A stretch of DNA of 64,000 nucleotides, taken from the IMG/VR virus record IMGVR_UViG_3300031885_000006, positions 12,890 to 76,889 of that record; one strand, given 5' to 3'. Under the pieces are notes generated by a model. That model ran no database searches and was not told the origin of the DNA. It saw nothing but the letters and a program-made list of their open reading frames with translations. A program made the position numbers and the translations under genes. Origin of the DNA: a virus. This document shows positions 18,103 to 59,064 of this stretch, piece by piece (positions within the stretch are counted from its first letter, which is position 1; every line of letters starts with the position of its first letter).

Positions 18103-18777
18103 TTATTCACCTAATCTATCAAGAATTTTGCCTATTAATGGATGTCGTACAATTGAATCATTTTCAAATTTAACAATACCGACACCTGGAACGTTTTCTA
18201 ATCTATAAATAACGTCGCTTAAGGCACATGTTGTTCCGCCAAGATCACTCTGAGTTGGGTCGCCAGTAATGATAATTTTGCTATCTTCTCCAAATCTTGT
18301 CAAAAACAACTTCAACTGCATTAAAGAACAATTCTGGGCTTCGTCTAATATACAAACAGAATTATCAAAAGTTCTGCCTCTTAAATAGGCAAGAGGTGCC
18401 ACTTCTGAAGCTGCGGTAATTACGTCTCTTTGAGGATTGTCTTCTCCAACTAACTTCTTAATAGAATCATACAAAGGCATCATATAAGGATTTACTTTTT
18501 CTTGAAAATCTCCTGGCAAATAGCCCAAAGACTCTCCAGATTCCACAATAGGTCTTGTCAAAATGATTCTTTTTTTGTTCTTTTGCAACACCTCATTTAT
18601 GGCAAAAGCTGTGGCAAGAAAGGTTTTTCCAGTACCGGCTGGACCTGTTAGAAAAAGCACATCATGTTGTTGAAAACCAGCCCAGGCTAGTTTTTGAATA
18701 GAATTTTTGAATTCGATGTGGAATCTACCCTGCCCCTTAGACTTAGTTGCAGGTGTCTTCTCATGTGATTTTGCCAT
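18103..18777 (-). CDS. phoH: PhoH-family ATPase
   Basis: GPAGTGKT, LGYLPG, AYLRGRTF, LDEAQN, TGDPTQSD and IVRHPL. Confidence 0.95.
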   Translation of the reverse strand: MAKSHEKTPATKSKGQGRFHIEFKNSIQKLAWAGFQQHDVLFLTGPAGTGKTFLATAFAINEVLQKNKKRIILTRPIVESGESLGYLPGDFQEKVNPYMMPLYDSIKKLVGEDNPQRDVITAASEVAPLAYLRGRTFDNSVCILDEAQNCSLMQLKLFLTRFGEDSKIIITGDPTQSDLGGTTCALSDVIYRLENVPGVGIVKFENDSIVRHPLIGKILDRLGE

Positions 18778-18801
18778 GCTTTATTTATAGTTACTATCAA
18801 T

Positions 18802-18834
18802 AAAAAAAGCACAAGAAAGTCTTGTGCTTTTTTT
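18802..18834. terminator. Intrinsic terminator ending the ~420-nt ncRNA
   Basis: aaaaaaagcacaaga-aag-tcttgtgcttttttt. Confidence 0.85.
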
Positions 18835-18846
18835 ATTTAAAAGGAA

Positions 18847-19265
18847 ATAGTCCCCCCATTACCAGTATGGGACTCGTTTTTCAGATATAATTGCTTATAT
18901 CTACGAGATTAAGAGGAATTGAACGTCGTTTAAAGGATTTGACATCAGTCTGAGTATTTCTTAAAGAACGACCAGATTAAGAAATTGTCGCAACAACCCT
19001 TCTTTTTGTTCAAATATCTTAAAAGTGTTTTCCTTGTTAAATTGTAGCTCTGGCTCGCCACCGAAGTGGAGTTTCAGTCAAGTTTCAACCAATTACCCAC
19101 GGCTGATCGGGATGGCAATGTAGTATGCCAACGACTGTTTTCATATCGGGGACATGAAAACCATCCCACTAGTTCAGTTCATAGTAGAACCACGAATTTT
19201 ACACCAGTGCGGCGATGCATATTTTTAAATGTCCTGCATGGGGACACCCCAAAGGGCCTGACTAT
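18847..19265 (-). ncRNA. Unassigned ~420-nt structured ncRNA
   Basis: No minus-strand ORF in the track. Ends pair (AUAGUC/GACUAU); CCAC-UUCG-GUGG, AGAUAUAA-GCAA-UUAUAUCU and several other stems; own promoter and terminator. Confidence 0.7.
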
Positions 19266-19269
19266 CAAT

Positions 19270-19299
19270 ATTATAAATGAATTAATGGCAAATTTGCAA
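19270..19299 (-). promoter_or_regulatory. Promoter TTGCAA-N18-TATAAT for the ncRNA
   Basis: The -10 ends 5 nt before the 5' closing stem. Confidence 0.6.
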
Positions 19300-19318: not shown

Positions 19319-19807
19319 ATGGAAAATCTCAATTTCAAACATTTTTTAGAGTCTGCTGAAAAAGAATTCAAGGATGACATCAAACAGACACTTAATAAAA
19401 TACCAGCCAGCCACAAAAAGCTAGTGCATGACTACAAATTTAAGTCAGAAGGTGGAAACACACTTAAAGGAGATCAAAAGCATGTGGGTGAAATTGACGA
19501 GAAAAAGAAGCACATAAAAGTCGCCGCACCCTACAATTACAGCAGAGAGACAACCATTTTACATGAGATAGCTCATGCAGTCTGGAAATTCGTTCTTACT
19601 CCAGATTTAAAAAAACAGTGGTCGCACCTTCTTAAAAAGACCAAAGACGAACACAAAGATAAAACTAACAAAGCTGCCAAAGACTCATTAGATCAAAATG
19701 ATGAGGAGATCTTTTGCATGTCATATGCGAACGCCTACACAAAACACAAAAACGCCACCTATAATCATGACGCATGGGATAACTTCATAAAAGCGTTGCC
19801 AAAATAA
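19319..19807 (+). CDS. HExxH zincin-like protein with capsid-targeting-like N-terminus
   Basis: LHEIAH...EEIF; N-terminus MENLNFKHFLE. Confidence 0.65.
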   Translation: MENLNFKHFLESAEKEFKDDIKQTLNKIPASHKKLVHDYKFKSEGGNTLKGDQKHVGEIDEKKKHIKVAAPYNYSRETTILHEIAHAVWKFVLTPDLKKQWSHLLKKTKDEHKDKTNKAAKDSLDQNDEEIFCMSYANAYTKHKNATYNHDAWDNFIKALPK

Positions 19808-19821
19808 ACCAAGGTATAATT

Positions 19822-20694
19822 ATGAATTTCAGTATGTGGCTAGAAAATGAAGCAGATGAATTAGAACATCAAGCAGCCGATTTTATTTTTTCCAAAATAA
19901 AACAAGCATGGCAGTTATCAATTCAAAATAAACAGCCAATTCGATCTATTATGCCGCAAATTTGGACCAACAATATGCGTGGTATCAAGTATTTCCTTCC
20001 TAACGATCAATTTCCGTCATTATCCCAAATAGCAATTCGATTTCCTCCTTCAACAGATGAATCAGACACAATCAGAATGCATGGACAAGTGGTTGAATTT
20101 AATTTTTCTTTAAAAAAATTAGACGATGCAAAAAATGAACAAGAATCACAACAGGCACTTAATTCAATTGGTGGAACAATACATCACGAAATCACTCATT
20201 TGCACCATAAAGGAGCAGATTTAGACTCCAGCGATACGAGTGGGGGCTCAGATGGACAAGCAGAAAGAGCCATTAAATATATGATGTCGCCGGGTGAACT
20301 ACAAGCACATGCGAAAGAATATGCTTTTGCGTGGAATCGACTATTCCCAAATCAAGCATTTAATCCACAACAATTTGTTCAACAAGTCATACCCCAAATC
20401 GCCAATAAAAACAAAGCAACAAATTATTTCGTGGCATTTGCAGACCCCATCAAACAAAACAAATGGAAAGCAAAAAATTTAGATTTGGCCTCTGCCTACG
20501 GCCAAATAGTCAAAACCACATCTAATTATGTGACCGCTTTCAATCAAAAATCTCAACCTCAACAATCTCCAATCGACATCGGTGCAAACAGCAATTGGCA
20601 ACAAAACCTAGCCAAGCTAAAATCAATGGGAGTAGACCCTGAACGAGAAAATTGGAGCCGAGGGGAGATAATTAGAGGCAGGAAAAATAAATAG
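19822..20694 (+). CDS. HExxH protein with capsid-targeting-like N-terminus
   Basis: HHEITH...Y..SPGELQA; N-terminus MNFSMWLENE. Confidence 0.65.
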   Translation: MNFSMWLENEADELEHQAADFIFSKIKQAWQLSIQNKQPIRSIMPQIWTNNMRGIKYFLPNDQFPSLSQIAIRFPPSTDESDTIRMHGQVVEFNFSLKKLDDAKNEQESQQALNSIGGTIHHEITHLHHKGADLDSSDTSGGSDGQAERAIKYMMSPGELQAHAKEYAFAWNRLFPNQAFNPQQFVQQVIPQIANKNKATNYFVAFADPIKQNKWKAKNLDLASAYGQIVKTTSNYVTAFNQKSQPQQSPIDIGANSNWQQNLAKLKSMGVDPERENWSRGEIIRGRKNK

Positions 20695-20700
20695 AGTTCC

Positions 20701-20728
20701 TTCACAATCCTAAAATCTGTGGTATAAT
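20701..20728 (+). promoter_or_regulatory. Promoter TTCACA-N16-TATAAT for the RNA ligase-map operon
   Basis: Both hexamers visible. Confidence 0.7.
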
Positions 20729-20772
20729 CAATGAGCATAAAAAAACTCGATTTGAATTTTAGGTTGTTTATA

Positions 20773-58478: not shown

Positions 58479-59064
58479 TGGAGCCGAGGGGAGTCGATAT
58501 TCCCCACACCTATTACTAGGTGAATGGACTATATCATTGCCATAGCTTTTCAGCCTTAGGCATCGGGCGCTTATCTGGTTATTAAGAGGGCTAAACCTCT
58601 CCAGTAGTCTCTACACCTTCCTGCGATGTATCGCAAGCTTGGCTCGGTATTGCCCCAGAGGGGTTTCACCGAATTCACCCAATATTTTTTTCTAAACCTT
58701 TCGATTTAGATGGGCTCGACTTCCGAACCCCTTTCCAGAATAACTTGTAAAAAGACCTCTACATGCTTGTCTTATTGTTTTTGCTTTCGCATCTCGCCAT
58801 TCGTGTCCACATAAAGCTAAGGACAATTCACAGCCAGCAGAATCTTTGTCTCGTTTAGGTATCTCTGCGTGAACCTAAACCAGCCGGATTTTTTTTCAGG
58901 TTTTCAAGACGCTACCAGCATCGCTTCTATCAACCTGTCGCCACCTTAAGCAGCGAGAGCTAGAGTGTTGCCTGTTAAGGCTTGAACGATTTTTAAAGCG
59001 GCCCTTCGTTCAACCGCTGCATGCCATCTATCTACTGCATTACCTGTCGATGCCTGACGGCCCC
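58479..59064 (-). ncRNA. ssrA: tmRNA, intron-interrupted; tag peptide (A)GNTLALAA
   Basis: Acceptor stem GGGGCCG/CGGCUCC-A with G3:U; T-arm AGGGG-UUCGACU-CCCCU after intron removal; pk1-like knot; tag frame 58972-58946 ends LAA-UAA; 357 nt spliced; CCA not fully encoded. Confidence 0.93.
58498..58726 (-). mobile_element. ORF-less group I intron (229 nt) in the tmRNA T-loop
   Basis: P1 GGGUUCG/CGAGCCC with U:G; P/Q AAUUCGGUGAAAC..AAUACCGAGC; P7 GAGACUA/UAGUCC; P3 GGGUG/CGCCC; P9 CACCUA-GUAA-UAGGUG. Confidence 0.9.

Follow-up and report, generated by a model that had tools for sequence, protein, structure and literature searches.

What is encoded in the long gap that separates a phoH gene from its divergent neighbour in a huge phage genome? 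The question arises from the window, by which is meant the whole 64,000-nt stretch of viral DNA that was analysed. The IMG/VR contig from which it comes is 76.9 kb long and is estimated to be only 15% complete, and the window must therefore be regarded as a fragment of a huge phage. The gap measures 541 nt and is bounded by phoH on the minus strand and by a divergent open reading frame (ORF) of 162 aa on the plus strand. A preliminary description had placed in it, at 18802-19299 on the minus strand, a stand-alone and highly structured non-coding RNA (ncRNA) that it could assign to no class. The analysis reported here upholds that reading: the region matches no Rfam family, and its homologs preserve a promoter, a terminator and approximately 20 helices. 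Judged from comparison of sequences, 18802-19299 on the minus strand is very probably a real structured RNA gene. How this RNA functions, and whether it is linked to the PhoH protein encoded beside it, has to be weighed separately.

The gap and its neighbourhood

The genes that flank the gap are the following.

18103-18777, minus strand: phoH, encoding a protein of 224 aa whose sole domain is PhoH (Pfam PF02562, E 5.6e-68); its start lies 25 nt past the terminator of the ncRNA
19319-19807, plus strand: divergent gene for the 162-aa protein, with an HExxH motif (LHEIAH) that is invariant in the alignment; syntenic in all homologous loci

No minus-strand ORF of at least 60 aa lies between phoH and the gene at 19319-19807. 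The stop codons TAA, TAG and TGA are intermixed in all six frames of the gap, so that an alternative genetic code opens no gene there, and a hidden ORF of this kind is ruled out. On the plus strand, the gene for the 162-aa protein is followed by a 290-aa ORF and by genes for an Rnl1-type RNA ligase and a methionine aminopeptidase (MetAP). The 680-aa protein encoded downstream of phoH gave no lead in Pfam, PHROG, NCBIfam, PDB or Atlas.

Several further observations concern these neighbours. The 162-aa HExxH protein is also encoded in three metagenomic loci (L015 1458-1946, L017 1400-1888 and L014 2995-3483); it has no Pfam match, and since its HExxH motif is accompanied by atlas neighbours from the ATLF and Peptidase_Mx1 families, it is probably a small zinc metallopeptidase. 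The 290-aa ORF (19822-20694, plus strand), for which no family was detected, looks like a lineage-specific insertion, because tblastn finds no match to it in the syntenic blocks of L015 and L017. Neither phoH nor its neighbours are preceded by a Shine-Dalgarno sequence, and boxes that resemble -10 elements lie very near their ATG codons (18778-18801, 19808-19821 and 20715-20730): TATAAA stands 6 nt before the ATG of phoH, and TGGTATAAT stands 2-3 nt before the ATGs at 19822 and 20731. GGAG-type sites occur at many other genes of the window. The arrangement at phoH and its neighbours may reflect leaderless or otherwise unusual initiation.

Homologous loci

Homologs of the ncRNA are scarce. Neither a blastn search of 50,697 GenBank phage records nor the related IMG/VR contigs reached via PhoH or the 162-aa protein produced a match to it. 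Metagenome contigs from JGI and ENA were scanned with the PhoH protein, and nhmmer was then run with the ncRNA on the loci found. In this form the nhmmer comparison with huge-phage genomes that the preliminary description had called for gave clear matches in two loci, L016 (E 6e-57) and L015 (E 4e-48), in both of which PhoH identity is 87%. Two covariance models built from the window and these two loci, R1 for domain I and R2 for domain II of the fold described below, both match a third and more distant locus, L017, a 546-kb contig with a PhoH identity of 72%. The R1 match covers 1945-2146 (34.8 bits, E 6e-8) and is adjoined by the R2 match at 2170-2371 (50 bits, E 1e-9). The homologs thus number three, all of them on metagenome contigs of related huge phages.

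The four loci share one gene order, with the MetAP, Rnl1 and HExxH genes on one strand and the ncRNA, phoH and the gene for the 680-aa protein on the other, and the order RNA-terminator-phoH is kept down to a PhoH identity of 72%. The nucleotide identity of the ncRNA core to its three homologs is 75%, 71% and 59%, which is about equal to that of the flanking genes. The ncRNA stretch is also present in public sediment DNA runs; among the public runs listed as containing it, there is none of RNA. Four sediment and freshwater DNA runs yielded short contigs only, among them one 1.5-kb contig, from a relative that resembles L015, which contains two conserved blocks of the ncRNA; its phoH has 80% nucleotide identity, and blocks 18956-18986 and 19077-19139, the latter with 87% identity, are kept amid diverged sequence.

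Beyond these sequences the searches returned nothing credible. This holds for five related huge-phage records (G001-G004 and LR756511.1; PhoH identity 55-68%), which were searched by BLAST and with three covariance models, and for 17 other metagenomic phoH loci, none of which matched the ncRNA models. Exact-pattern scans of IMG/VR for conserved blocks gave no match for two of the patterns and, for the third, three chance matches confined to the hairpin. The same conserved-block pattern applied to GTDB genomes returned only the L017 phage again, misbinned in a metagenome-assembled genome (MAG), together with chance matches. On this comparative evidence, the predicted RNA is a new family of large pseudoknotted ncRNA, which comprises four distinct sequences and one partial sequence from one clade of huge phages.

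The labels attached to the L017 contig in public databases deserve comment. The same contig (L017, L049 and L052; ERZ869936 NODE-6, 546 kb; CALFYV010000090.1) occurs in a GTDB MAG labelled Bacteriovoracaceae, and NCBI attributes its PhoH to a 'Crenarchaeota archaeon' MAG. It is most likely a huge phage genome that was binned into cellular MAGs.

In two other loci with PhoH identities of 67-68% (L020 2040-2480 and L018 1640-1925), an ORF-free region of 270-420 nt with a strong terminator stands just before phoH. These regions have fold z-scores of about -3.3 and match none of the models R1-R3; they may be unrelated structured RNAs that occupy the same position.

Predicted transcription unit

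Three predicted elements delimit the putative transcript.

19294-19299, minus strand: -35 box TTGCAA, from a promoter scan (10/12 matches)
19270-19275, minus strand: -10 box TATAAT, from a promoter scan; predicted RNA start at about 19266-19263
18802-18834, minus strand: intrinsic terminator, consisting of an A-tract, an 8-bp stem (18827-18809) and a U-tract (18808-18802); the stem differs in each homolog

The promoter that had been proposed for the region, TTGCAA followed after 18 nt by TATAAT (19299 to 19270), is the best promoter-like site in it. The -10 box is unchanged in L016 and L015, and L017 has TATATT in its place; the -35 box reads TTGTAA, TTGTTT or TTGATT in the homologs, at an unchanged distance. 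In all four sequences 7-9 nt separate the end of the -10 box from helix P1, which indicates that the RNA starts at its first helix. The proposed terminator was likewise found, with its A-tract, 8-bp stem and U7, and a strong terminator is present in all four homologous sequences; that of L017 has a G+C-rich stem of 13 bp. The distance from the terminator to the phoH start codon is 25-45 nt across the four loci. Since the 3' strand of helix P18 ends only 4-10 nt ahead of the terminator, the transcript is expected to be structured from end to end. The region at 18802-19299 is, by these sequence criteria, a unit with its own conserved predicted sigma-70-type promoter and a strong intrinsic terminator.

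Stability, strand and known families

The minus strand folds with a minimum free energy of -136.6 kcal/mol, compared to -107.8 +/- 5.5 kcal/mol for shuffled sequences (z -5.24), whereas the z-score of the opposite (plus) strand is -2.70. The assignment to the minus strand, which had been argued from G:U pairs and tetraloops, is supported by the helix map: it contains 35 G:U pairs, and 97.4% of cells are canonical on this strand as against 90% when they are read on the other. The UUCG and GCAA tetraloops on which the argument drew are both present.

Rfam 15 was searched with families that include RNase P, SRP, 6S, tmRNA, group I and II introns, ROOL, GOLLD, OLE, raiA, HEARO, riboswitches and small ribozymes. 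The cmscan comparison that had been suggested agrees with the placing of the RNA outside the catalogued classes, in that no family matches the ncRNA region. At gathering thresholds, the only matches in the window are a tmRNA and a group I intron elsewhere; when the region alone was searched at E<=10, the only matches were to sRNA and leader models that touch just the terminator hairpin.

The tmRNA and the intron lie together at 58506-59057 on the minus strand. The Rfam tmRNA alignment (58733-59057) is without the 5' acceptor strand, the whole T-arm and the 3' acceptor, and a complete group I intron (58506-58736) follows directly, starting exactly where the T-arm would be expected to start; ARAGORN makes no tmRNA call. 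The gene looks from its sequence like an intron-interrupted or otherwise split tmRNA gene. Upstream of the window (G000:C1:5520-5888, corresponding to L063 121-489), ARAGORN reports a tRNA-Pro of 93 nt and a tRNA-Asn of 91 nt, both unusually long.

Architecture of the RNA

Helices were mapped by hand on the four sequences and each pair was checked by script. The resulting predicted fold is composed of two separately closed multi-helix domains, a linker hairpin capped by UUCG, and three pseudoknots. Its elements, all on the minus strand and listed from the 5' end of the RNA within each part, are the following.

18841-19266: structured ncRNA core of about 425 nt (the terminator brings it to about 462 nt), delimited by nhmmer, two independent covariance models and the helix map
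19075-19264: domain I, 190 nt, closed by P1 (covariation of P1) and containing P2, PK1, P4, P5, P6, P8 and P9
19215-19246: PK1, an H-type pseudoknot with S1 UGUCC/GGACA and S2 AUGCA/UGCAU (covariation)
19166-19187: P5 hairpin, two of whose pairs differ on both sides in L016; conserved loop GAACUGAA, present in 4/4 sequences
19137-19161: P6 hairpin, GUUUUCAUGUC/GAUAUGAAAAC, variable in sequence and fixed in position; hairpin in 4/4 sequences, 5/7 pairs compensatory
19086-19130: P8 (UGGCA/UGCCA, loop ACUACA), CCAUCCC and P9 (loop UGGGUAAU); the most conserved block
19058-19069: P10 linker hairpin with a C(UUCG)G cap; 4/4 scored pairs covary
19050-19055: 5' strand of PK2, (A)GCCAG, which pairs with the P15 loop CUGGU at 18865-18860
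18841-19035: domain II, closed by P18 (covariation of P18) and containing the P11-P14 arm, the P16/P17 arm and P15
18956-18985: P14 hairpin, AUUUCUUAA/UUAAGAAAU, whose loop GUCGUU (18972-18967) pairs in PK3 with AACGAC at 18930-18925
18873-18907: P16/P17 arm with the GNRA cap GCAA; 5/6 P17 pairs compensatory, GNRA loop in 3/4 sequences
18854-18872: P15 hairpin UCCCA/UGGGG, whose loop is the 3' strand of PK2; C-G becomes U-A in L015 and L017

Across the four sequences, of which L017 is the most divergent, base pairs are maintained by compensatory substitutions. The map comprises 20 helices and 114 pairs; 97.6% of its 456 cells are canonical, and 49 pairs have changed on both sides. In controls in which the 3' partners were slid by 1-3 nt, only 37-45% of cells are canonical and 2-8 pairs have changed on both sides. 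The counts of compensatory changes in P6, P9, P10 and P17 follow in part from the choice to align these variable hairpins of L017 by position. Estimates obtained by other routes are available for comparison. RNAalifold applied to the three close sequences gives 131 pairs, 27 of them with compensatory changes. In a three-sequence alignment made by MAFFT only, 91.8% of cells are paired, compared to 37-44% when the partners are slid, and 19 pairs have changed on both sides, compared to 7.3 +/- 2.0 in shuffled alignments, a count that was reached in 0/500 of them; each pseudoknot has at least one double change in this alignment. The single-sequence fold of L017 (z -5.64) recovers P1, P4, P5, P6, P8, P10, the P11-P14 arm and P17.

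Domain I is closed by the pairing of UAGUCAKG (19264-19257) with CMUGACUG (19082-19075) in P1, so that the 5' end is not paired to the 3' end. In P1, G-C replaces A-U in L017, and U-A replaces G:U in the others; the recovery of P1 by the single-sequence fold of L017 is a further sign of this helix. P2 is capped by UUYG. In PK1, S1 is identical in three of the four sequences and weakened in L015, while in S2 an A-U pair becomes G-C in L016 and the pairing is shifted to UUGCG/CGCAG in L017. A C-G pair of P8 becomes U-A in L016, the P9 stem is wholly different in L017, and P10 has a longer stem in L017, again with a UUCG cap.

Domain II is closed by P18 (19035-19029 with 18847-18841), a helix missed both by the preliminary description and by RNAalifold. 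Its strands read AAGGAAA/UUUCCUU in the window, AGAAUGA/UCAUUCU in L015 and UGAGAAG/UUUCUCA in L017, and all of its cells are canonical. PK2 joins the sequence RCCAG, which stands just after P10, to the P15 loop CUGGY; a G-C pair becomes A-U in L015, and the flanking pair is A-U, U:G or U-A depending on the homolog. PK3 connects the P14 loop with the internal loop between P12 and P13 as GUCGUU/AACGAC in the window, ACCGUU/AACGGU in L016 and L015, and GCCGUU/AGCGGC in L017.

The secondary structure that had been drawn from the window sequence on its own survives in part. The stems GUUUUCAUGUC/GAUAUGAAAAC and AUUUCUUAA/UUAAGAAAU correspond to P6 and P14 and are conserved in the homologs, as are both suspected pseudoknots, namely UGUCC/GGACA with AUGCA/UGCAU, which is PK1, and the loop GUCGUU with AACGAC, which is PK3 and contains no broken cell; the tetraloops stand as well. 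Two pairings that are complementary in the window are not kept by the homologs and have been discarded. The supposed pairing of the ends, AUAGUC/GACUAU, is contradicted by 3' partners that read GGCUGC or GUUCAU in the homologs, and the stem GGGAUGG/CCAUCCC by a 5' strand that reads CCAGAGU in L016.

Possible functions of the RNA

The explanation that we prefer is that the region is an independent gene for an uncatalogued, highly structured ncRNA which is part of a trans-acting ribonucleoprotein and is linked to PhoH; as a complete statement, it is advanced tentatively. The folded RNA would act in trans as the RNA part of the ribonucleoprotein, and its likeliest partner would be the PhoH-type ATPase encoded directly downstream, for which it could be a substrate, a cofactor or a regulator. 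The link with PhoH is weak, resting as it does on the conserved gene order, on the description of PhoH-family proteins as RNA helicases, and on a preprint on PhoH2 and ncRNAs. For jumbo phages, proteins of the PhoH family have been described as RNA helicase-like ATPases (PMC7824862, section 3.4.9), mycobacterial PhoH2 affects RNA levels (PMC7390352), and in bacteria long, lineage-specific structured ncRNAs are reported to adjoin PhoH2 genes, with an architecture that differs for each PhoH2 lineage (bioRxiv 10.64898/2026.10.21.760802). Three points weigh on the other side. Synteny with phoH has been observed only in collinear relatives that keep the MetAP, Rnl1 and HExxH genes as well, and it could therefore represent inherited gene order in place of a functional link. 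Other phage phoH genes, with 55-68% identity, have no match to the ncRNA models, and the PIN domain that the preprint's PhoH2 proteins contain is missing from the phage PhoH. A split PhoH2 with its PIN domain encoded in the neighbouring gene was considered and is ruled out, because the 162-aa neighbour is of the HExxH type. A more specific proposal, that the RNA is a dedicated subunit of the PhoH ATPase (for specificity, activation or scaffolding) or else a new large ribozyme that works with the adjacent RNA-repair genes, is rather unlikely.

The strongest competitor is a stand-alone structured RNA that is unrelated to PhoH, either a large ribozyme or one of the self-assembling 'ornate' RNAs, of which ROOL and GOLLD are examples, and for which adjacency to phoH would simply have been inherited. 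Such an RNA is possible, if somewhat doubtful. With about 425 nt, some 20 helices and three pseudoknots, the ncRNA falls within the range of size and complexity of ribozymes and ornate RNAs; two RNAs associated with phages, ROOL and GOLLD, assemble into homo-oligomers (PMC12286853); the four phages are collinear over the whole gene block; and the phage is rich in RNA biology, with its tmRNA, group I intron and Rnl1-type ligase. On the other hand, no ribozyme, ROOL, GOLLD, OLE or raiA model matches the RNA at E<=10, and no tRNA gene lies near it in the window. Complementarity of the ncRNA to the long tRNAs of the phage was also considered, and it was dropped since the duplex energies are no better than those of shuffled sequences.

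It is unlikely that the region is a cis-acting 5' leader of phoH, that is, a riboswitch-like element or a protein-dependent attenuator that controls passage through the terminator. The arrangement does resemble a leader: the RNA lies on the same strand and directly upstream of phoH, its terminator precedes the start codon by 25-45 nt in 4/4 loci, phoH has neither a Shine-Dalgarno sequence nor a clear promoter of its own, and the 3' strand of P18 stands 4-10 nt ahead of the terminator in the manner of riboswitch P1 helices. The terminators, however, are long and strong and their stems differ among the homologs, and inspection revealed no alternative pairing common to the four sequences that would disrupt them. 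The antiterminator pairings that can be drawn are weak and restricted to single sequences: 9 bp with a mismatch in L016, five A-U-rich base pairs in the window and, in L017, 4 bp outside the stem; L015 has none. The RNA has roughly double the length of the largest single aptamers known, which also counts against a leader. In addition, three of the four loci have TATAAA, TATAGA or TATATA 4-6 nt ahead of the ATG of phoH, and this box could give rise to a leaderless phoH transcript. A discrete RNA is favoured over an attenuator on this sequence evidence, because the -10 box is near P1, P18 is near the terminator, the terminators are strong and differ from one another, and no antiterminator is shared.

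That the region is a non-functional spacer or a decayed gene with fortuitous hairpins is hardly credible: the family has been found in only four phage contigs, but 49 double changes leave the pairing intact, promoter and terminator are both conserved, and two separate domain models find the distant homolog at the same locus.

Relation to known systems

The closest parallel to the discrete, possibly PhoH-linked RNA that we prefer is provided by the PhoH2-associated ncRNAs of bacteria. COMPASS cluster 1,412,455 and related clusters (bioRxiv 10.64898/2026.10.21.760802) are likewise long, multi-stem RNAs of no known family, with 357 nt there compared to about 425 nt here, and both they and the phage ncRNA adjoin a gene with a PhoH ATPase domain. 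They differ in that the COMPASS RNAs occur in bacteria, mainly Bacteroidota, beside PIN-PhoH fusions, whereas the present RNA occurs in huge phages beside a 224-aa protein with the PhoH domain only. By analogy, the phage locus looks like a counterpart of the PhoH2-associated ncRNAs. When model R1 was run against 151 sampled Bacteroidota genomes, it gave six weak matches of at most 26 bits, belonging to no Rfam family; these were rejected as chance matches because they are weak, far from phoH and mutually unrelated.

ROOL and GOLLD (PMC12286853, PMC5737381) are also large, complex, pseudoknotted and carried by phages. At about 580 nt and about 800 nt, respectively, both are larger than the phage ncRNA, no covariance model of either matches it, and it is not located beside tRNA genes. 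The raiA motif RNA, or ModT (PMC11706538, PMC12968392), offers a similar arrangement, a structured RNA upstream of a gene with a terminator between the two, and it was initially regarded as a leader before it was shown to be an abundant independent ncRNA (same sources). It belongs to a different family, of about 200 nt and found in Bacillota and Actinomycetota, which has no match to the phage ncRNA. Candidate structured RNAs mined from IMG/VR (PMC10690425) are objects of the same kind, from uncultivated phages; they average 67 nt and were required to occur in at least three IMG/VR regions, whereas pattern scans of IMG/VR for the phage ncRNA gave no true match.

The class of object is accordingly a known one, that of orphan large structured RNAs and now of PhoH-associated ncRNAs, while the family and its architecture are new, the COMPASS clusters having been compared by their description.

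Conclusions

Few natural RNA classes are known to exceed 400 nt and to have an intricate pseudoknotted fold, and most of these have proved to be ribozymes or the cores of important ribonucleoproteins. With a promoter, a terminator, 20 helices, three pseudoknots and four divergent sequences, the present ncRNA is ready for chemical probing, cryo-EM and binding tests. If the RNA were a PhoH subunit or a ribozyme, it would provide the first mechanistic handle on phoH, which is a very widespread phage gene. Its fixed place before phoH, taken together with the 2026 report on PhoH2 and ncRNAs, suggests that ATPases of the PhoH family may generally work with a structured RNA partner. What phoH does in phages is a long-standing question, and the ncRNA-phoH locus makes that question testable.
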